In this document: piece by piece, positions 680-62,151 of the stretch
Layout of the letters: every line of letters begins with the position of its first letter
Numbering within the stretch: position 1 is the first letter of the stretch
Source of the DNA: a virus
Taxonomy: Duplodnaviria > Caudoviricetes
Length of the DNA: 64,000 nucleotides
Reading direction: 5' to 3' (one strand)
Virus record (IMG/VR): IMGVR_UViG_2901966883_000003
Program-made: the position numbers and the translations under genes
The notes under the pieces: generated by a model
The model's input: only the letters and a program-made list of their open reading frames with translations
Told to the model about the DNA's origin: nothing
Database searches by the model: none

Positions 680-1103
680 ATATAACCAGCTATCGAACAT
701 TAAATTGCATTCGCCTCAACAATCTGTTCCCTAGCAAAGTTCGGCGAAAGAACTCCACTGCACCGAGAGGATAACTGGCTAAAGCAACTGGTGGATATAT
801 CTAAACGATTGGGCTTATCCCCAGCGAAAAAGTCATCTCGCCACTTTGAGATAACTTACTAAATAATCGGCACACCTAACTACACACACCAAGCTCGCAC
901 GTATGACAACAGTAGCTATCTGCTGCGAAGTAATCAACTTCCGAACTTGGCATTAGTATGTCCCTTGCGAATTGCTTTATACACTCCCTATACGCTTTTC
1001 ACACTTGGAAGTGATACTCCACAATCCGCCTTACCAACTCCCGTCCCACATTAAAGTACTCATAACGGTACTACCTTGATGAGAGGTGTGTCGGGAGTTG
1101 GTA
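680..1103 (-). ncRNA. Multi-domain structured non-coding RNA(s), class not identified
   Basis: ORF-free and more GC-rich than its surroundings, with many nested stems (TACCAACTCCCG/CGGGAGTTGGTA, GCCAAGTTCG/CGAGCTTGGT, AGTTATCTC/GAGATGACT, AGCCAGTTATC/GATAGCTGGTT); strand inferred from flanking tRNA genes. Confidence 0.6.
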
Positions 1104-1106
1104 CAA

Positions 1107-1151
1107 AACCCACTTCTGGAGTTGAACCAGAATAATACTACCGAGGTGAGT
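1107..1151 (-). ncRNA. Minimal tRNA-like element (acceptor stem + T arm only)
   Basis: ACTCAC...TCTGG-TTCAACT-CCAGA-A-GTGGGT; no D or anticodon arm. Confidence 0.55.
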
Positions 1152-1162
1152 AAACATAAATA

Positions 1163-1375
1163 TATGTTCTTTGACACATATGAGTAGCACATTTTTTGTT
1201 GCCACAGATGTAATAAAAGGTACTGTCTGTCCCACGTACATGTGGGTAACACCAGTTTCCTACGTCTCAAGTGCTATAAACCTTAGTCTGTCCCACATGT
1301 ATGTGGGTGACACTTCTTTATCACTGTAACGCAGTCTGACGGACGTAGTCTGTCCCACGTACATATGGGTAACAC
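1163..1375 (-). CRISPR. Mini CRISPR array: 3 conserved + 1 degenerate 28-nt repeats, 3 spacers of 33-34 nt, type I-E-like repeat
   Basis: Repeats at 1225-1252, 1286-1313, 1348-1375 (minus-strand consensus GTGTTACCCACATGTACGTGGGACAGAC with a CCCAC/GTGGG hairpin) and a degenerate copy at 1163-1190; 61-62 bp period; unrelated spacers; leader ending ...GATTTTTAGT on the 1376 side. Confidence 0.88.
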
Positions 1376-1557
1376 ACTAAAAATCAGACCAATAAATCCC
1401 ACAGTACTAGGGTTTTGGGAACTCCTAATTTTTTAGGGTTGCCAAAATTTCATTAGATACATCGTTGCCTTCGTATCAGAAAAATCTGAAATAAAGGTCT
1501 TACATGATAATTACCAAATGCTTTAAAGTCCGCAACAGACAAACGGACTACCTATTT
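1376..1557 (-). ncRNA. Putative TnpB omegaRNA scaffold / CRISPR leader
   Basis: 182 nt between the tnpB stop and the first repeat; hairpins (AGTCCG/CGGACT, TCAGA/TCTGA, CCTAA/TTAGG); position expected for a TnpB omegaRNA. Confidence 0.55.
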
Positions 1558-2814
1558 CTAGGCTAATTGTTTTAATCCTTTGTCTAGGATATTCTTGGCT
1601 GCATTTATATCACGAATATGGTAAGTATTACAGCTAGGACAAGTCCAACTTCTATCTTTTAGTGTTAGCTTGTTCGTATCTTTTGTTCCCATAACATGCC
1701 CACATTCACTACATGTTTGTGTTGTATTCTTAGGATTTACAGTAACAAAAGTCTTACCATATAATTCAGCTTTGTATTCTAGTTTTTGTAGGAATGTTCT
1801 CCAACCTACATCACTAATAGACATAGCCAAAGCGTGATTTCTCAACATATTTTTACTTCTTAGATTTTCAGCCACAACCAAATCGTGGTTCTTGATAAGT
1901 GTTATCGACATCTCGTCCAAGAATTTATTACGTTGATTACGCACTCTGTTCATGAGTTTTGATACCACCATACGTTGCTTTTGATAGTTCTTGCTGTCAC
2001 GTAAAGAACGTCCCTCTTTCTTGGCTCTAACTTGTCTGCGTGATAATTTACGTTGTGCTTTAGCTAATCTACCCTTAATTGTTCTATAAAATCTTGGGTT
2101 AGCCACAACATTACCTTCGCTAGTTGTTAAGAAGTTATCTGTGTTTAAGTCAAGTCCAACTTGAGAATTAGTCTTAGGCAACTCTTTAACAAAAGGTGTA
2201 TCAGAACCTAGCTGCATAGAAACATAGTAGATACCAAAAGCGTTTTTAGAAATAGTAGTTGTACCAATTCTAATATCGCCTTTATTATCCAATAGCTTTC
2301 TATATGAACCACTCACACGAATAATACCCAACTTAGGAATATTGATATGCTTATTATCTACGAACCTAATTGAGCCAGTCCACATATTTACTGGTTTCTT
2401 CTTACTTGGATAAGTACCACTTGTTTGATACTTCTCCTCGTAAGTTTTCTTATGGAAATTAGGTGTCCCAGCGTTATGAACTTTTCTAAACATATTCCAT
2501 GCAGCTTTATAAGAACGCATTGCCATAGAACGACAATGACTATCAATATAAGGGTGTTTCATGTAGGTATAGTGCGTTGCTAAATGGTTTTGAGCCTTCT
2601 TACGTTTTTCCAATTCAGCAATACGTGTTTGAATTGTATCAATAGGTAGTTTTACCTGTTTTAATTGGTATAACTCTTTATCAATCGCAACCATAGCGTT
2701 ATATACAGCCCTAGATACATCACTGTTCATCTTAATGATTTGTTTTTGCTTCGTGCTAGGGTGAATACACATCTTCAAGCCATAGTGGTATTTTAACTCA
2801 CTCATTGTCTTCAT
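1558..2814 (-). CDS. tnpB: TnpB-family RNA-guided endonuclease, CRISPR-adjacent
   Basis: N-terminal HTH_OrfB-like segment, RuvC-I GLDLN, RuvC-II VAENL, Zn finger CSEC...CPSC, RuvC-III RDINAAKNIL; D/E/D triad intact. Confidence 0.95.
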   Translation of the reverse strand: MKTMSELKYHYGLKMCIHPSTKQKQIIKMNSDVSRAVYNAMVAIDKELYQLKQVKLPIDTIQTRIAELEKRKKAQNHLATHYTYMKHPYIDSHCRSMAMRSYKAAWNMFRKVHNAGTPNFHKKTYEEKYQTSGTYPSKKKPVNMWTGSIRFVDNKHINIPKLGIIRVSGSYRKLLDNKGDIRIGTTTISKNAFGIYYVSMQLGSDTPFVKELPKTNSQVGLDLNTDNFLTTSEGNVVANPRFYRTIKGRLAKAQRKLSRRQVRAKKEGRSLRDSKNYQKQRMVVSKLMNRVRNQRNKFLDEMSITLIKNHDLVVAENLRSKNMLRNHALAMSISDVGWRTFLQKLEYKAELYGKTFVTVNPKNTTQTCSECGHVMGTKDTNKLTLKDRSWTCPSCNTYHIRDINAAKNILDKGLKQLA

Positions 2815-2860: not shown

Positions 2861-2920
2861 TTGCAACGGTGGGGCTCGAACCCACATCATCCTTTGCTCT
2901 ACCATTTGAGCTACGTTGCT
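2861..2920 (-). ncRNA. tRNA-like element lacking the anticodon arm
   Basis: GCAACG/CGTTGC acceptor, D arm GCTC-AAATGGTA-GAGC, 10-nt linker AAAGGATGAT, T arm GTGGG-TTCGAGC-CCCAC. Confidence 0.75.
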
Positions 2921-3065
2921 AACCTTCTAATTCTAAAAGGAGGAAATCTTAAACCATGAACCAATCCGTAAGTCGTAATGAACCCGCTCATGAATTAACT
3001 TATTAATGTCGCATTATTACTTAACGCAAAGTTATAATCTCGGGGTAGTCATGCCCTACCCCTAT

Positions 3066-3116
3066 TACCACATTAGGAGTCGAACTCATAAAATGTACCT
3101 TTTAACATCTGTGGCA
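3066..3116 (-). ncRNA. Degenerate minimal tRNA-like element; matches the last CRISPR spacer
   Basis: GCCACA/TGTGGT acceptor-like stem and GTTCGACTC T loop; 3095-3124 matches spacer 1191-1224. Confidence 0.5.
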
Positions 3117-3225
3117 ACAAAAAAAATAATTTAAAAAAGGAGTGTTGATTAATACGCAAAACCTAATCAACTAATAAAAAATGAACGAATTAATAAATGT
3201 TTGTTTCGAGGTGTTTCCACCTCTA

Positions 3226-3299
3226 TGTCATAGTAAGGACTTGAACCTTGCTGCTCTCGTGTTAAGGACGAGTGTGTTACCCGCATACACCATATGACT
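3226..3299 (-). tRNA. Atypical tRNA-like gene with TTA at the anticodon position
   Basis: GTCATA/TATGAC acceptor, GTGT/ACAC D stem, CTCGT-CCTTAAC-ACGAG anticodon arm (C33 instead of U33), AAGG-TTCAAGT-CCTT T arm. Confidence 0.6.
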
Positions 3300-3683
3300 A
3301 CCGATTAGGATAGATATTTATTGAATAATTACGCATAGGTTTACTAACTACACTATTCGCGTTCGCCTATCCGCTCCCACATTCCCTTTAAAGTCTGTGA
3401 GCGTGGTATGTAAAAGCCGCATATGAGCTTGTGTGGTATAGTGTTCCCGACAGTCCAACATTTTACATACCAAATGTCTACTCGTTTATTCTCTAAACTC
3501 TTAACATATAGTAGACTGTTTTTGGGAGAGCATTTTAATAGCTCCTAGAGAGAACGGGACGAAAAACTGTGTCAGTATCGTAAGTTGTATTAGGGGTTAA
3601 TTATAGCTGTATTTCATTGAGTTGAAAGGAAGTGAAAACCAACCCGTTCCCTTTAGCAACCATCAAAGCTGCCTTATGTAGTT

Positions 3684-3899
3684 TTAGTGTTTTCTCTTAA
3701 CAGAATAGATATGTTTCTTGTGCCATTCTTTTATATTGCTAAACCCAGCTGCCAAACCAGCTAAATAAAATAACTTAGTCCAGAAACCATAGCTATAAAA
3801 GATTAGGTCAAACGCAACGGTCATAATAAACAACCATTGAATTAAATACCATGTTCTCGTTAAGAGAAATCTATCAATCATATTACTTAGTTTATCCAT
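3684..3899 (-). CDS. Small membrane protein
   Basis: ORF track 3684..3932; the ATG at 3899 has a GGAGGTG RBS; two hydrophobic segments. Confidence 0.7.
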   Translation of the reverse strand: MDKLSNMIDRFLLTRTWYLIQWLFIMTVAFDLIFYSYGFWTKLFYLAGLAAGFSNIKEWHKKHIYSVKRKH

Positions 3900-4448
3900 C
3901 TTTACACCTCCAATTAAGGATGGATATATCAACGAGTAGTTAAAAATGGAAATATATAATCAAGAGCATAAAAAATACATTAAAAGTCAACCGCCTACTC
4001 GCTGATATATCAACCCTAATGGGCTGACATTCAGATAAAAACAAAAATAGTATAAAAATAAAAGTTTTAAAGAGATGATATTAAAATCAGTATTAATGTA
4101 ATTAACAAAATAGACTAGAGATACACTAACCATAGAATATCATCAAATATAAGAAAAATTTGGAAGTACAAATCCTTTTTAGATTTGCGAAAGTTGTTTA
4201 GGTAAACTAAGTTTTGTCTACCTACATAGGATTTGGAAACTTCTTGACGGAAGGAGTTATAAACCAATATTCTAACCAAACCCTATGTAGATGGGCAATA
4301 CCGTTATTCACCCACCTACCAATATTTTGGAGGTGTCGCCACGATAACCGCTACATAAGTAAAGAAAATAAACAAAATATTTTAGTAAAAGGAGGCACAT
4401 TCATTGTGAATGCACAAAATCAAGTATCATTATAGTTATCGTGACAAA

Positions 4449-4527
4449 TATCGGATTGATGAATTGAACACCAAACCTTACAAGTACCGTTATCATACTC
4501 ATACGCTCTGCCATTAAGCTATCCGAT
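4449..4527 (-). ncRNA. tRNA-like element with an extended (~9 bp) anticodon stem
   Basis: ATCGGAT/ATCCGAT acceptor, GCTT-AATGGCA-GAGC D arm, TATGAGTAT-GATAACG-GTACTTGTA arm, TGGTG-TTCAATT-CATCA T arm. Confidence 0.6.
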
Positions 4528-4616
4528 TGTTGAATCACGTAAGGACAATTACATTAAGTTCAACATATTTAATAGATTTAATATATTTAATTTTGTTGTA
4601 GCCTTAAGTTATTCGT

Positions 4617-4676
4617 TTATTCTCTTAACTCTTAACTACATATATTATAATACCATATAAAAAATAAAAGTCAACA
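4617..4676 (-). promoter_or_regulatory. SigA-type promoter for the tRNA/ncRNA/tnpB cluster, with conserved leader motif
   Basis: TTGACT...TGGTATTATAAT followed by AGTTAAGAGTTAAGAGAATAA. Confidence 0.7.
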
Positions 4677-4682
4677 TAAAAA

Positions 4683-4943
4683 CTAAGAAATCTTCATCTT
4701 TTTTTGAAGATTGTTTAACTTATCCATTCGTAGCCCAGTCCATGTATCATCTTCTGTAACTACAACAGACAAACTACGTAGTCCTCTTTCTAACAAATAA
4801 TCTAATGCTTTGGGGTCTTCATCTACATTGTATTCATGATAGTCAATTCCCATAGAATGTAATTTGCGTTTTGTTATCTTACATTGTTGGCAATTATTCT
4901 TAGAATATACTGTTACTACATTGCTACTTGATACTGTCGTCAA
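4683..4943 (-). CDS. nrdH: NrdH-like glutaredoxin
   Basis: VTVYSKNNCQQCKITKRKL...YNVDED...WTGLR; CxxC redoxin motif. Confidence 0.88.
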   Translation of the reverse strand: MTTVSSSNVVTVYSKNNCQQCKITKRKLHSMGIDYHEYNVDEDPKALDYLLERGLRSLSVVVTEDDTWTGLRMDKLNNLQKKMKIS

Positions 4944-5298
4944 CCGTTCTATTCACCTCCTTATGTCTGTTATACTCATTTTCCCAGTATTCAATATTAT
5001 CAATGAAATTGTCTACTATATTAGAAACATAAGTCATCAAAGCAAATGATATTGCCTCTACTCCTGTAACAAATATGGTTGGTATTTCATACTTACCCCA
5101 CCCCATACCAATATACACAACTAGAGCTGCTGTAACAAAAAGCCAGAAGGTAACACTATGACTTTCTAGTTTCTTCATTTCATCATATACTCTACGCATA
5201 GATTTTAGTTCAATGTCAGCAGAAATCATATCACCACTCTCAAGGTATGTAGATAGATTACGCACTGATTTATTGAACTCTCTTTCAGCACTTGTCAT
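4924..5298 (-). CDS. Hypothetical membrane protein
   Basis: ORF overlapping its neighbours; two hydrophobic helices. Confidence 0.7.
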   Translation of the reverse strand: MTSAEREFNKSVRNLSTYLESGDMISADIELKSMRRVYDEMKKLESHSVTFWLFVTAALVVYIGMGWGKYEIPTIFVTGVEAISFALMTYVSNIVDNFIDNIEYWENEYNRHKEVNRTVDDSIK

Positions 5299-5705
5299 TT
5301 GTACGGATAATCTCCCTTCTTACCACTAAATTCAAAATAGTTTTCGATTGTGCTAAGGGCTAACGTCATATTCAATAATGGATTCCCAAATCTCATCTTA
5401 TAAGCATTTAATACAATTTCACCATCGTCTTCAATTTTGCATCCATACCACTTAACGATGGGACGTAGTTCATCATAGCGTTCAGATGGAATATGAGAAA
5501 AATTAATACCGAGGGTATAGCCATCATCAGAATAGACATTATCCTTGTTATAGATTTCCACGTTATCGTGCATATAGTCTACCGCACGCAGCGTATAAGA
5601 TGTCCATCCATTATCTAATGGCAATTTATACCACACTAAATTATCATAGACTTCTACAATCTTAGATGTATCTATATCGTTTATGTTCTGTAACGGTCTA
5701 TCCAT
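5295..5705 (-). CDS. DUF1828-like protein
   Basis: YSDDGYTL motif; RBS GGAGGG. Confidence 0.55.
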   Translation of the reverse strand: MDRPLQNINDIDTSKIVEVYDNLVWYKLPLDNGWTSYTLRAVDYMHDNVEIYNKDNVYSDDGYTLGINFSHIPSERYDELRPIVKWYGCKIEDDGEIVLNAYKMRFGNPLLNMTLALSTIENYFEFSGKKGDYPYK

Positions 5706-5866
5706 GAGCTATCCCTCCTAATCAAGTTTTCTCAAAATATCTTCAAGTTCCCAATAAATTAGAACCAACATTGCAGCTGAAATTTTCATTGCCATATCTA
5801 TTTCTGAGAAAGCTATACCTACAGTTATTAATATGAATACTATTGTTGTTAGAATGTTCCATACTT

Positions 5867-6133
5867 TCATAGAACTCCTCCCTCCATGTTAATCGCACTT
5901 TTAAGAAGTGAACTCTTATTAATGAGTACGCAATTCTTGTTATCAAAGAACCTTAACGCAGTTTCTTTAACATCATGCTCCCAATAATATATATGAATAT
6001 GCCCGTCATGAAGATTAACAACGCATGAATTGTTTGTTTCTAGCGTAAACATATAGAAACTATCGTTATCTCTAACATAGATTATATCACCGTATTTAAC
6101 CTCGTACTTATCCAATATCTCCTTAATCTTCAT
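5867..6133 (-). CDS. Small phage protein, tandem paralog family
   Basis: MKIKEIL...GDIIY...NLHDG pattern shared with neighbours. Confidence 0.7.
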   Translation of the reverse strand: MKIKEILDKYEVKYGDIIYVRDNDSFYMFTLETNNSCVVNLHDGHIHIYYWEHDVKETALRFFDNKNCVLINKSSLLKSAINMEGGVL

Positions 6134-6228
6134 TGCTTAACACCACATTTATGTAATTTGTTGTAAATACTACTGTACTCTTACAGTCATCTTTTATAAT
6201 AGTAGACTTAAAGTAATCTTTACTCTCT

Positions 6229-6507
6229 TTAATCTGTGTCATTATCTTCCTCCGTTTCTCTAACAGCTTTATATTCATCTACAAGTTCCACATCATCATC
6301 ACCAAAGAAGTCTTCCCAAAACTTGACGGAATTACCTACTGCTGTATCATCACTAAGAGCAACACCACATTCTAAATCAATGACGCATGCGAAAGTATCA
6401 AATTTAACAAAACTACATGCCAACATGAAATGTTTGTCAACGGTTCTGTCATAGACTACGTCACCAAAACGCAAATCATCTCTACTTAATATCTCTTTAA
6501 TCTTCAT
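6229..6507 (-). CDS. Small phage protein, tandem paralog family
   Basis: MKIKEIL...GDVVY...DLECG; RBS AAGGAG. Confidence 0.72.
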   Translation of the reverse strand: MKIKEILSRDDLRFGDVVYDRTVDKHFMLACSFVKFDTFACVIDLECGVALSDDTAVGNSVKFWEDFFGDDDVELVDEYKAVRETEEDNDTD

Positions 6508-6522
6508 ATGTACACTCCTTAC

Positions 6523-6810
6523 TTAATTAGACACGTCTATTTCTGCGTCCACGATACCCCAATCTACAATAGCGTCACCACATAAAATTGCTTCAATCTC
6601 TGATGGTGTATCAGCTGATATTCCAGCTACACCCGTAGCTATATCGACTGCGTGATACCGTTTACCCCCAAGTTCTTTTATTACAAACCAGTATTCTTCG
6701 TACGCACTTTCACCGTTATAAACAACTTTAATCACGTCACCGCATTCTATTCTTCTTTTGTTTAAGACCCTTTTATTAATCTTCATCAAAACACCTCTAC
6801 TTAGATACAC
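6523..6810 (-). CDS. Small phage protein, tandem paralog family
   Basis: MKINK...GDVIKV...YWFV...DIATG...VDAEI. Confidence 0.7.
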   Translation of the reverse strand: MYLSRGVLMKINKRVLNKRRIECGDVIKVVYNGESAYEEYWFVIKELGGKRYHAVDIATGVAGISADTPSEIEAILCGDAIVDWGIVDAEIDVSN

Positions 6811-7606
6811 TTAGCTTGGCGTCTACAACTTCCCAGTCATCAACACGAGCGTTTAATTCATCACAAATATCTCTATCAAAATCTATTGAAATCACGATAC
6901 TACCAGACTCCAAATTAACTAGGTGGTACTTGCATACACCAGGGTCATATACTACTATGACATAACATTCTTGTATCTCAACGACCAAAGCCTCTTCGTT
7001 TTCGGTGTCGGAAAACAAGATTTTGATTACGTCACCAGACCCAATAATATTGTTACGACTTAAATCTTTTACAATTTCCATTGTTCTACCAATCCCTAAC
7101 TCTAACTTATTATCAACGAAACATGATTTGATTTCTTCATTTGTATAATCTCTTGCTTTGTTTGCACAAATTTCATCTTTAAAATCTTTCCAACTAGAAT
7201 GTGAGTGTGTCATTTCCACCAATTTCCATGGCTCTATAGCAACTAATCTCCCCACAATTTTTTTAAAATCATTTACAACATTACTATTCAAGATATTATT
7301 ATCCATTTTTACTGTATGAACATGTATAATCCCATCTTTAATATTTGCTACTTTGTATTCGTAAGTTATTGGAATTGCTCCATTATTTTTAAAATTTCGG
7401 TATACTTCTTCCTCAACTGGTCCATATCTCCACTTAGAAAAATTGCCATTTATTAAAGGAGTATCGTATTCAGATAAACAATAACCCTGTAAAAAGAATA
7501 ATACCTTTTGTAGCTTTAGATTTGTTACTGGCTTATCTTCTTTTTTAGCAACACCAATTATAAAATTAGCCACAGCCATAGGGCTTTGTGATTCAAATCT
7601 TTCCAT
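6797..7606 (-). CDS. Panacea (DUF4065/SocA-like) antitoxin domain fused to a paralog-family module
   Basis: VANFII...TNLKLQKVLFF...W-YGPV...LVEMTH..SSW Panacea signature; C-terminal ~95 aa MEIVK...GDVIKI...NLESG...VDAKL resembles the neighbouring small ORFs. Confidence 0.82.
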   Translation of the reverse strand: MERFESQSPMAVANFIIGVAKKEDKPVTNLKLQKVLFFLQGYCLSEYDTPLINGNFSKWRYGPVEEEVYRNFKNNGAIPITYEYKVANIKDGIIHVHTVKMDNNILNSNVVNDFKKIVGRLVAIEPWKLVEMTHSHSSWKDFKDEICANKARDYTNEEIKSCFVDNKLELGIGRTMEIVKDLSRNNIIGSGDVIKILFSDTENEEALVVEIQECYVIVVYDPGVCKYHLVNLESGSIVISIDFDRDICDELNARVDDWEVVDAKLSVSK

Positions 7607-21631: not shown

Positions 21632-22936
21632 CTATCCCATAACATATTGTTTTACAGTAATTACTTGTTTTTGCCAATTATTACTATGATTAATTAAGTT
21701 GATATTTTTAGTTGAGGTGTAACTTTTATCACTATTGCTTACATACTCACCAAAAATATCTCTTAACCTTACGTTCGTTCCTTTAGACATAAATCCACTA
21801 ATATAGCCTTTCTTGTTACTATCCTTGATTTTGACATAATCATTAAGCCAAAAACCTTTAGCGTACTTAGTATTCTTGGCACTCCTTTTGCTAGTTACAT
21901 TAGGTGTTTTACGACCCTTACGTGCTGTAGCCTCATGTAAGGAACGCTTTTTCTTTCTAAATTGTTTAAACATCATAATGCTAGTTGGCTTTGCTTTGAT
22001 TTTTCTAATACCACTAATTGCTACAGCGTCATTATAGTGGGACTTAGTTAAGTCTAAGTCAGCTCGCTGTAATGTTGTCCATGCTCCATACTGAAATTTT
22101 GCTTGAGGAAAAGCTAAAAATAGCCTTCTTCTTAGAATATTCATGAAAGTCGCACCTTTATATGATTTATTAACCTTCTTTTTATTCTTGCACCATTTAG
22201 CCAAGATTCCAGTTTGGTGGTTCTTAGTTGTGTGGCAATTAGAACATACGGTAATTAGATTATCTACGGTATTAGTTCCACCTAATGAACGGTAGATAAT
22301 ATGGTGGATTTTGAGTTTACCACCTTTTTTCTTACAGGCTTGGCAAGTGTAGTTATCTCTAGCTAAAACAAACTGTTTAACAGTTTGATAACCGTATAAA
22401 TCACCTTGCTGATAACCCTCACCATTTATTTCTGGATTCTTCATTTTCTGTATATCAAATTTACCTACTTCGATATGCAAATCAGCTTTAGGTAAGACTA
22501 ATAATAAACGATTAATCCAGTTGATATTATGGTTAACCTTACTTGCTACTGACGGTGGCAACCAGTTATCTTTTCTACTAGCTGTACGATTTAAAAATCT
22601 AGCTTTACGATAACGTGTTTTACGATTACGTCTGCCCCTACGATATATCCTTCTAGTGTCTAGTAGTTTTTTGACATCTTGTCTTAACTCTACTTCGCCT
22701 TGAAATAAGACTTTATCTTGGCTTGTAACAGCTAATCCAATATGTCTTTGACCGCTATCAATACCGATACTTATATCTTGTTTATAACCAGCTGAGCCAT
22801 ATAAGAGTTGAATGGTAAAAGGCTCTTTTTTTAAGACTTTTGCTTTGCCATCTCTCAACAAGATTCTAGCCTTTTTAGGTTTACAAGGCATTAACGCTTC
22901 GCCATGTTGATTAATTACAAAAACTCGATTTTGCAT
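21632..22936 (-). CDS. iscB: IscB RNA-guided endonuclease
   Basis: ALMP (PLMP) domain, GIDSG RuvC-I, RRxxRRxRR bridge helix, IEVGKFD RuvC-II, HNH (CQAC...HHI...NLITVCSNCH), HYNDA RuvC-III; ATG at 22936 has AAAGGAG RBS. Confidence 0.95.
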   Translation of the reverse strand: MQNRVFVINQHGEALMPCKPKKARILLRDGKAKVLKKEPFTIQLLYGSAGYKQDISIGIDSGQRHIGLAVTSQDKVLFQGEVELRQDVKKLLDTRRIYRRGRRNRKTRYRKARFLNRTASRKDNWLPPSVASKVNHNINWINRLLLVLPKADLHIEVGKFDIQKMKNPEINGEGYQQGDLYGYQTVKQFVLARDNYTCQACKKKGGKLKIHHIIYRSLGGTNTVDNLITVCSNCHTTKNHQTGILAKWCKNKKKVNKSYKGATFMNILRRRLFLAFPQAKFQYGAWTTLQRADLDLTKSHYNDAVAISGIRKIKAKPTSIMMFKQFRKKKRSLHEATARKGRKTPNVTSKRSAKNTKYAKGFWLNDYVKIKDSNKKGYISGFMSKGTNVRLRDIFGEYVSNSDKSYTSTKNINLINHSNNWQKQVITVKQYVMG

Positions 22937-22949
22937 CGCTTTTTCTCCT

Positions 22950-23215
22950 TTCATTTTTCATAAGGTATTAATAACCTTATCACGTATCTATCAGAGTTAA
23001 TAAATACATGTAGTTACCCTTCGACAATGTTATCTCAGCTTATTAACAAGGTTGACTAGCACATTAACCTTATGCTTGTTTACAGTGCCTCCATAGAGCT
23101 AGAAACTAGGGTATCATTTCTAGGTATGTTCACTGAAATAACGTAGTTCTCTAAGAACTTAGTCTAGACAACAAAACTATTTAGCTACCTACTTTAGTAG
23201 GTGGTTACTGTTGAC
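22950..23215 (-). ncRNA. IscB omegaRNA (HEARO-like) and element end
   Basis: Begins GTCAAC..ACCACCTACTAAAGTAGGTAG hairpin; contains AGACTAAG..CTACGTT, CCTAGTTTCTAGCTCT and ACATTGTCGAAGGG motifs typical of IscB omegaRNAs. Confidence 0.82.
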
Positions 23216-60606: not shown

Positions 60607-62151
60607 CCATTAATAAAAATTATAATAAATTAAATAAAAGTCTATCAGAAAGCGTAAAAATATAGGTAGTCTTTAAGACAATAAATCCAAAACCATAAAA
60701 CGTCTTCATTTTAATATGAATATATATTGGCTTACTTCTATAAAATTAGTATAATATAGAAGATAAAATTATTATACCAATTTAGTGAAATAAAGTGAGG
60801 TGGCATATATGATTAGAACGCAAAAAGTAAGACTTTATCCAAATCAAACCATGAAGAAAGTTCTTGATGATTTATGTGATTATCGTAGATATTGTTGGAA
60901 TCAAGGGTTGGCTTTATGGAATGATATGTATGATAGTTCCTTAATTTTAGATGATAAAAAGCTGAGACCTAATGAGTACAAGGTGAGGAAAGAGTTGGTA
61001 GCTAATAAAGAAGATTGGCAATATCAATTATCTTCCAGATGTTTGCAGTTAGCGAGTGTAGACTTGGGCAAAGCGTGGGATAACTTTTTTAATAAGGCAT
61101 TACCAGATTGGGGCAAACCTAAATATAAGTCTAAAAAAGCTCCTAGACAAGGTTTTAAAACTGATAGAGCCAAGATTGTCAACGGGAAACTAAGACTTGA
61201 CAAACCACACAGAATCAAAACTTGGTATGATATTAAGTTTAAAGGTGCTAAGAGCTTAGATGGTGATTTAAAAGTTGTATCAATCTATCGTGAAAATGGT
61301 AAATACTGGGCTAGTTTACCTTTTGAAGTTGAAATAGCTAAGAAAGATAAAACTTGTAAGAAAACAGCAGTTGATGTTAATGTAGGTCATTTCAACTATA
61401 CCGAAGGTAAAGTTAATACATTGCCTAATCATCTAAAGAAACTCTATAAACGTATCAAACATTACCAACGTCAGTTGGCTAGAAAACGTGTTGTTAATGG
61501 AAAGAAAGCTACTCAATCGCATAATTATGTTAAAACGAGAGCCAAGTTACAACGTGATTATCGTAAAGTGGCTAATATCCAACATGATATTATTCATAAA
61601 TTTACAACTAAATTAGTAAGTGATTACGACAAAATCGTAATCGAAGATTTAGATGTGAAGAAAATGCAGATGACACACGTTGCTTCTAAAGGTTTACACC
61701 GTTCACAATTTGGTTATTTTAGGCAAATGTTGACCTATAAAGCTGATTGGTATGGTAAGGAAATAGTCTTAGCAGACCAATATTATCCAAGCACACAAAG
61801 ATGTTCTGAATGTGGATATATCAAGACTGGCGAAGATAAAGTTGGTCTTAATGGTAATCGTAAGCATGGAACAAAACATAACGAATATATTTGTTATGAA
61901 TGTGGTTCGATTATGGATAGAGATGAAAATGCAGTTATGAATTTATTAAATTTAGTAGCATAAAAATACAACGGGGTGGGCTACACCCTTATGCTATCAG
62001 AGCTAGTCAATGTCATTACCCTTTAGTTAGGATATGGGAATACTAGCGTTGACGGTAGTAAATAAAATCTAGGAAAGGAAAAACTATATTTCTTTCTAAT
62101 AATATAGAACTAATAACTATTGGTCTATATTATTCTACATTTTATATAGCG
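60607..62151 (+). mobile_element. Non-autonomous IS607/IS605-like tnpB element (ends approximate)
   Basis: AT-rich left end CCATTAATAAAA..., tnpB, ~190 nt structured 3' region ending ...TTTTATATAGCG; interrupts the head operon; no tnpA. Confidence 0.65.
60800..61963 (+). CDS. tnpB: TnpB-family RNA-guided endonuclease
   Basis: KVRLYPN N-terminus, AVDVN, VIEDL, YPSTQRCSECG, DRDENAVMNL; catalytic triad intact. Confidence 0.95.
   Translation: MAYMIRTQKVRLYPNQTMKKVLDDLCDYRRYCWNQGLALWNDMYDSSLILDDKKLRPNEYKVRKELVANKEDWQYQLSSRCLQLASVDLGKAWDNFFNKALPDWGKPKYKSKKAPRQGFKTDRAKIVNGKLRLDKPHRIKTWYDIKFKGAKSLDGDLKVVSIYRENGKYWASLPFEVEIAKKDKTCKKTAVDVNVGHFNYTEGKVNTLPNHLKKLYKRIKHYQRQLARKRVVNGKKATQSHNYVKTRAKLQRDYRKVANIQHDIIHKFTTKLVSDYDKIVIEDLDVKKMQMTHVASKGLHRSQFGYFRQMLTYKADWYGKEIVLADQYYPSTQRCSECGYIKTGEDKVGLNGNRKHGTKHNEYICYECGSIMDRDENAVMNLLNLVA

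Follow-up and report, generated by a model that had tools for sequence, protein, structure and literature searches.

The closest described match to the locus reported here is the Cas12r system of Thermus Lalka phages, in which a phage TnpB-like nuclease works with a CRISPR array. Interference by Cas12r has been demonstrated, and its authors propose that adaptation proceeds via the type I-E Cas1-Cas2 of the host (bioRxiv 10.64898/2026.04.20.719267). TranC systems, described as intermediates between transposons and CRISPR (Jin et al., Cell 2025, doi 10.1016/j.cell.2025.09.004, cited through PMC13565253 and PMC13639567), have also been reported, among them the phage-borne CauTranC9 (bioRxiv 10.64898/2026.03.27.714800). 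We analysed a 64,000-nucleotide stretch of viral DNA (Duplodnaviria; Caudoviricetes; IMG/VR record IMGVR_UViG_2901966883_000003), hereafter the window, in which a tnpB gene is followed on the minus strand by a non-coding region and a short CRISPR array. The evidence leans, though not by much, towards a working TnpB-array unit on a type I-E-derived array, with an immobilised phage TnpB serving as a miniature type V-like CRISPR effector. The array is probably loaded by host type I-E Cas1-Cas2.

Cas12r resembles the window system in its repeats of about 29 bp, its 32-33-bp spacers and its overall layout. The last spacer of Cas12r arrays is common to relatives and the upstream spacers differ, as in the window lineage, and the repeat and protospacer-adjacent motif (PAM) resemble those of the host's type I-E system. 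The effectors differ: Cas12r has 564 aa, belongs to a thermophile branch of TnpB and uses CRISPR RNA (crRNA) alone, without trans-activating crRNA (tracrRNA), whereas the window TnpB has 418 aa and is 65-70% identical to TnpBs of multi-copy insertion sequences (IS). Unlike Cas12r, the window system keeps a conserved omegaRNA scaffold and has a repeat handle complementary to the loop of the scaffold pseudoknot. TranC systems, in the sources covered, share with it a TnpB-like effector, a downstream array, an omegaRNA split into scaffold RNA and crRNA, and the lack of adaptation genes, and some of their effectors are likewise TnpB-sized and phage-encoded. Their repeats measure 32-38 bp, against 28 nt here; a class 1 derivation of TranC repeats is not reported in those sources, and LaTranC (PDB 9jfo) matches the window TnpB in its C-terminal third only.

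ISDra2-type TnpB from the obligate mobile element-guided activity (OMEGA) systems of IS200/IS605 (8exa, 8h1j) has the same domain set, the same RuvC triad and a guide 3' of a pseudoknot scaffold. Unlike ISDra2, however, the window locus has no left end, no single right end and no TnpA; it has several guides, and its terminal module comes from CRISPR repeats. Type I-E arrays of Lactobacillaceae share with the window array the leader-end motif, repeats of 28 nt with the hairpin at a matching position, spacers of 33 nt that begin with T, and a 61-nt period. They differ from it in the last 6 nt of the repeat and in having cas genes, none of those searched for being found near the phage array or in three related phages. 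Effectors without Cas1-Cas2 beside their arrays, as in type IV and type V-U/Cas12f systems, borrow adaptation from co-resident systems. The window locus shares this arrangement with them; here, the likely donor would be a class 1 system of the host cell, with the effector on the phage.

The open reading frame (ORF) of tnpB (1558-2814, minus strand) encodes a 418-aa protein with intact RuvC residues D222, E316 and D402 and two CxxC zinc-finger pairs. Its product matches the Pfam families OrfB_IS605, Cas12f1-like TNB domain and HTH_OrfB_IS605, as well as the ISDra2 TnpB structures 8exa/8h1j (E 4e-36). It also aligns over its full length with the TnpB-like designed nuclease 9yyg (best chain), the D-E-D triad occupying the conserved RuvC motif positions, and zinc-finger residues C368, C371, C392 and C395 are unchanged across ten relatives. 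An OrfB_IS605 RuvC domain, a zinc-finger TNB domain and the triad together place the protein among the TnpBs. In related phages, the gene product is 95-97% identical at the amino acid level (97% in the nearest relative). Upstream, a tRNA-like element matched in Rfam (2861-2920, minus strand) lies 46 nt from the tnpB start codon, and comparison with IS relatives revealed no canonical left end. The locus does not have the left end, right end and insertion flanked by a transposon-associated motif (TAM) that together mark a transposon; the right end (...GTTGAC in relatives) is replaced by the leader and array. These results agree with a first-pass annotation of the window, made from the letters alone, which had described an intact 418-aa TnpB outside an intact IS, about 45 nt from a tRNA-like element, and whose coordinates all hold.

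Downstream of tnpB, a direct-repeat search identified three 28-nt repeats spaced 61-62 nt apart on the minus strand: repeat 1, which is leader-proximal (1348-1375), repeat 2 (1286-1313) and repeat 3 (1225-1252). A degenerate terminal repeat follows in register (1163-1190, minus strand); it is without the hairpin 3' arm and the 6-nt handle, keeps about half of its bases, mainly in the 5' half, and is identical in two related phages (G001 and G002, below). The register defines spacer 1 (1314-1347; 34 nt) and spacer 2 (1253-1285; 33 nt), both starting with T, and spacer 3 at the trailer end (1191-1224), all on the minus strand. The leader end before repeat 1 reads GATTTTTAGT, and 182 nt separate the tnpB stop from repeat 1. 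The array is thus as the first-pass annotation had drawn it, with a leader, four in-register hairpin repeats (three conserved, one degenerate) and three spacers. Repeat 2 is a 'flipped' palindrome relative to repeats 1 and 3: its hairpin core is approximately their reverse complement, while the repeat ends run in the same direction. A repeat with this flipped core is also found in G001, at repeat 2, and in contig L045, at repeat 1.

The unit of gene, scaffold and array recurs with other spacers in three related phages, namely G001, the nearest (129 kb, complete), G002 (127 kb, complete) and G003 (180 kb, 97% complete), and in metagenome contigs L007, L009/L010, L008 (at its second TnpB), L045 and L046. 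The flanks of the window locus and of G001 agree at about 97% of positions, and the two are nearly the same throughout the 182-nt region and the repeats, including the degenerate last one, yet all three spacers differ. The G002 array holds five spacers, of which the trailer spacer alone equals window spacer 3. Across the nine arrays, there are about 25 distinct spacers. As the same unit is present with other spacers in three phage relatives and in five contigs from metagenomes, the array is not a chance pattern: it is a real mini CRISPR array whose spacer content turns over fast among near-identical phages. A shared trailer spacer with different leader-side spacers is the polarity expected for acquisition at the leader end. 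The co-occurrence of tnpB homologues with a variable-spacer array, which the first-pass annotation had proposed to check, is therefore seen at nine loci. In L007 (4440-4690), spacer-repeat units occur as two duplicated pairs, of which one has identical members and the other differs by a single mismatch; tandem duplication is therefore a further way in which arrays of this family grow.

The 182-nt non-coding region between gene and array (1376-1557, minus strand) aligns with the omegaRNA of array-less IS relatives and is homologous to it as far as the point at which the terminal hairpin would start. We regard this region as a candidate tracr-like RNA, the start of which may fall within the 3' end of the tnpB ORF. 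To assess its folding, 22 omegaRNAs of IS relatives and the G003 scaffold were aligned and pairs were counted for one stated structure. In this structure, 90.4% of cells were paired, compared with 71.7% in shuffles and 33-43% with slid partners. The pseudoknot helix, formed between the loop of the first hairpin past the stop codon and the strand just before the guide, was 100% paired with compensatory changes, IS copies displaying the states CAACT/AGTTG, CAACC/GGTTG and CAGCTC/GAGTTG. Alignment and covariation both indicate that an omegaRNA scaffold is encoded at the 3' end of the gene or beyond it. No Rfam CRISPR-DR or omegaRNA family matched the locus, even at E 10. A pseudoknot is an established feature of ISDra2 omegaRNA (PMC13639567).

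In the window, the first hairpin past the tnpB stop (1527-1549, minus strand) carries the loop core GTCTGT at 1535-1540, to which the final 6 nt of every repeat are complementary. Across the array clade, the loop is GTCTGT and the repeats end in ACAGAC, or in ATAGAC with one G-U pair. Repeats could pair 6/6 with the loop of their own locus in eight of the nine array loci, the degenerate trailer-end copies reaching 5/6. In L007, both sides have changed (loop GTCCGT, handles ACGGAC/ACGGGC) and the 6/6 complementarity is kept. Among syntenic phages, the scaffold is 95-99.5% identical, which exceeds both the upstream flank (85-90%) and the third codon positions of tnpB (79-87%) and shows that the RNA region is constrained.

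We then placed the array-bearing TnpBs among their relatives. The array-less relatives, with 65-70% identical TnpB, are multi-copy IS genes of Ligilactobacillus salivarius, L. agilis and gut metagenomes. Their right ends stop sharply at ...GTTGAC, with unrelated DNA after it, and the closest IS group inserts after TTTAAT (TAM). Periodic repeats downstream of tnpB were found at none of about 40 array-less IS loci. In a maximum-likelihood tree, the nine array-bearing TnpBs and L008a, a relative with a replaced 3' end, form one clade (100/100 support) nested among the roughly 40 array-less IS copies. Without L008a, the array bearers are grouped with a support of 72/85, and a single change of the array label suffices along the tree. 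This provides, at the TnpB level, the phylogeny that the first-pass annotation had suggested. Downstream flanks of the unit fall into at least four unrelated contexts. The array therefore lies directly downstream of the effector and is kept with it at nine loci of one clade, with variable spacers, as in type V-like, TranC and Cas12r systems. The first-pass annotation had also named findings that would tell against the coupling. Of these, ordinary IS right ends are present in the 65-70% identical relatives, but are replaced by the leader and repeats at the array loci; and related phages carrying the array without tnpB were looked for in IMG/VR, where no array copies were found apart from the TnpB clade. 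Further handle-pattern matches in IMG/VR were coding repeats, not arrays. Loop-handle complementarity, membership of a single clade and persistence across at least four contexts together argue for the coupling of the array to TnpB.

The relatives show further features of their own. Contig L008 has three TnpB genes in a row (3001-7353) and also carries ParA-like and DUF5388 genes. The first of these TnpBs is 80% identical to that of the window, with a replaced C-terminus and no scaffold; the second has a scaffold and a five-repeat array. Upstream of tnpB in L016 (1000-3000), L046 (1-1136), L007 and L009, there are many copies of a related element with 65-90% mutual identity, some of them with tRNA T-arm-like motifs.

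To determine where the array format comes from, we compared it with eight genuine Lactobacillaceae type I-E arrays, each taken from beside a Cas6e gene. In these arrays, repeats of 28 nt alternate with spacers of 33 nt at a period of 61 nt; the first spacer base is T (in about three quarters) or C, and the leaders mostly end in GGGAT...TTTAGT directly before GT.TTCCCC. The phage leader end (1376-1400, minus strand) is similar, with GGGATTTAT, 11 extra bases, TTTAGT and then repeat 1. Phage repeats have 15-19 of 28 bases in common with host I-E repeats (13-17 within the first 22 nt), compared with 9-13 of 28 for canonical omegaRNA 3' ends; the 99th percentile of a shuffled control for 28-nt repeat identity was 14. 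The last 6 nt depart from the type I-E repeat, with only 1-2 of 6 bases in common with all eight host repeats, and the conserved I-E 3' end (GTGATCC in Lactobacillaceae), which forms the Cascade 5' handle, is absent from the phage repeats. In hairpin repeat length and position, spacer length and leader-end motif, the array has the type I-E format (28-29-nt hairpin repeat, 32-33-nt spacers), so that the type I-E pattern recognized in the first-pass annotation is borne out apart from those 6 nt. The repeat looks chimaeric, with a putative I-E body and a handle fitted to the TnpB pseudoknot loop. When a host leader-plus-repeat profile was run against four phage sequences, the G001 junction was the best match (E 0.022), while the window and G002 junctions scored E 0.56.

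We next examined the genes around the array. The absence of cas genes and tnpA described in the first-pass annotation stands in large part: Cas1, Cas2, Cas6e and Cas7e are absent from G001, G002 and G003 (cas3 was outside the search), and no cas genes were found among the ten largest other ORFs of the window, the only ones scanned there. The exception is a Y1 TnpA, which is present in G003 only, distant from the array, and absent from G001 and G002. On the bacterial side, 8 of 41 sampled Lactobacillaceae genomes carry Cas6e, and in one Cas6e-bearing genome a type I-E system coexists with a 58%-identical TnpB in four copies, which shows that there is opportunity for the two to meet. A host I-E locus with the window repeat, for which a search had been suggested, did not appear: a near-exact pattern found no array with the phage handle among 185,579 species genomes, and none turned up among 401 genomes of Lactobacillaceae. 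An attempt to name the host from host I-E spacers gave one partial match (21/22), which is insufficient.

For two trailer spacers, matching sites lie in the phage lineage itself, 0.3-1.8 kb upstream of tnpB; the matches are imperfect in every carrier, and both sites are preceded by ...AAT. The imperfect match of spacer 3 is in the window (3095-3124, plus strand; 30/32, including a gap of 2 nt), roughly 290 nt upstream of tnpB. The trailer spacer of G001 matches 4612-4644 (minus strand; 30/33), just downstream of a promoter-like site (4647-4674) that is the strongest of the operon. These two cases would fit conflict between related phages, or homing-like use.

From these observations, we infer the following mechanism. 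A minus-strand operon transcript would run through tnpB, the omegaRNA-derived scaffold of 182 nt and then the array. The pseudoknot of ordinary IS relatives would form between the 5-6 nt ahead of the guide, which follow a terminal hairpin, and the loop of the first hairpin past the stop. The window scaffold would have no terminal module of its own, each repeat instead supplying the equivalent: an I-E-type hairpin, a handle and a spacer as guide. The rewritten 6-nt handle ACAGAC would pair with the loop GTCTGT, and TnpB would cut spacer-matching DNA beside a 5' motif ending in AAT. New spacers would enter at the leader end, most likely because host I-E Cas1-Cas2 uses the I-E-like leader and repeat of the phage in trans, and conflict with related phages or other mobile elements would be the likely use.

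This account is weakest on the targets and on the adaptation step, and several results weigh against it. Most spacers have no match: the window, G002, G003 and L008 arrays gave nothing significant in 50,697 phage records, the window array had no match among plasmid records, and the cores of spacers 1 and 2 have no exact match in IMG/VR, so the search against phages and plasmids advised in the first-pass annotation yielded no target for either spacer. Just two imperfect matches are available, both in the carriers' own lineage, and the TAM therefore rests on n = 2; the TAM of canonical relatives, TTTAAT, is moreover longer than the ...AAT of the two matched sites. The loop-handle complementarity covers only 6 bp, with a chance probability of about 0.5% by rough estimate, and in L046 the loop has changed and the handle has not, leaving 5/6 pairs. 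A longer repeat:anti-repeat duplex between the scaffold end and the repeat 3' arm was unsupported, with a mean of 7.0 pairs within loci and 7.06 across groups. Finally, a leader-only profile of host I-E leaders gave no signal in the phage sequences. Profile support for leader homology is thus marginal and, with junction E values of 0.02-0.6, the homology is suggestive, not proven.

Cas-less, virus-borne mini-arrays that use host effectors are an established phenomenon, and the array could be one that reprograms host I-E Cascade. TnpB would then be a mere neighbour, left over from an IS that inserted into the leader, and loop and handle would match by coincidence. The I-E-like features of the leader end, of the repeat body and of the spacers (their length and the T at +1) would all suit such an array, as would the ...AA(T) flank, which is also compatible with an AA-rich I-E PAM. 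Cascade would, however, have to read a handle that has only 1-2 of 6 bases in common with the eight host I-E repeats and that occurs in no array of the genomes searched. Nor does this explanation account for an array not found in IMG/VR apart from the window TnpB clade, for the strong constraint on the scaffold between gene and array, or for the joint change of loop and handle in L007. We therefore consider it unlikely. That the array and TnpB are both out of use, as a decaying relic, seems highly improbable. The arrays are short, L046 and L008b have truncated repeats and L007 has duplicated spacer units, as decay might produce, but the catalytic residues are intact, purifying selection is evident (95-97% amino acid identity against 79-87% at third codon positions), the scaffold is conserved and spacers turn over rapidly among near-identical phages.

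Alternatively, the omegaRNA 3' module, made up of hairpin, pseudoknot strand and guide, may have been duplicated serially to give a de novo array that reached I-E dimensions by convergence. Duplication of omegaRNA segments is one of two routes to type V arrays, the other being insertion beside an existing array, between which Altae-Tran et al. 2023 (PMC10691335) leave the choice open while favouring duplication in general. The order of parts is the same in the repeat and the omegaRNA end, the terminal GAC of the canonical right end is kept in the repeat, and the G003 scaffold runs straight into a handle and spacer in array register. Array formation by omegaRNA-end duplication was our initial main reading and was dropped after comparison with the eight real I-E arrays: the phage repeats are much nearer to I-E repeats than to omegaRNA ends, and the leader-end motif, the exact 28+33 format and the T at +1 are I-E traits. 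The direct fusion of scaffold to handle in G003 was likewise considered as the ancestral form and rejected. Because the leader tail is kept in both subclades of the tree, this layout is probably derived, most simply by a later deletion between two GGGAT motifs. Duplication thus appears quite unlikely, and we favour the working TnpB-array unit on an array of type I-E derivation. The first-pass annotation had proposed an independent TnpB-to-Cas12 transition that borrowed a class 1 array. The I-E likeness and the coupling to TnpB support that proposal, while its claim to novelty was overstated, with Cas12r and TranC known.

The window holds other features around the locus and elsewhere. In the same RNA-gene cluster, ARAGORN called a tRNA with anticodon TTA (reading UAA; 3226-3298, minus strand; weak in Rfam), a possible suppressor tRNA. 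Between the array and a tRNA-Ser lies an ORF-poor stretch of about 450 nt (690-1160, minus strand), kept in G001 and G002, which begins with a T-arm-like hairpin (1114-1132) and could be a structured RNA; it matched no Rfam family at gathering score. The phage also has a second OMEGA system, comprising an IscB-type gene (RRXRR + HNH; 21632-22954, minus strand) with a full-length HEARO RNA immediately upstream (23010-23215, minus strand). A second TnpB of 387 aa is encoded at 60800-61963 (plus strand), with no array seen beside it and an Rfam 'Transposase-1' RNA match 30 nt past its stop (61994-62052, plus strand). G001 likewise has a second TnpB, 27% identical.

A phage TnpB with an I-E-like array is a known kind, because Cas12r and TranC have already been described. 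What the window locus adds is an independent, very young lineage, a retained scaffold and an explicit, testable rewiring of handle and loop. The protein is 65-70% identical to that of jumping IS copies, the scaffold is kept, and only the handle and pseudoknot loop have been rewritten, which may mean that the lineage was caught early in capture. In shape and polarity, the type I-E unit would copy the omegaRNA 3' module, its hairpin being followed by a 7-nt handle and by the PAM-proximal end of the spacer. On this basis, we propose tentatively, and at slightly less than even odds in our judgement, that I-E arrays are recurrently captured by phage TnpBs, that this lineage has been caught very early and that host I-E Cas1-Cas2, perhaps with Cas6e, feeds the phage nuclease.

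The locus offers a closely spaced natural series, from mobile single-guide IS copies to a phage clade in which a leader and repeats of I-E format replace the right end, and along which only the 6-nt handle and its partner loop differ. The small size of the system (418 aa, a scaffold of about 180 nt and 28-nt repeats) makes the route of capture and the minimal RNA rewiring testable, as well as the dependence of cas-less arrays on host adaptation enzymes. In plain terms, a transposon nuclease seems here to be becoming a CRISPR effector, in what looks like a young and independent instance of a kind described only recently. Taken with Cas12r in Thermus, it suggests a recurrent affinity between TnpB-type nucleases and type I-E arrays in phages.

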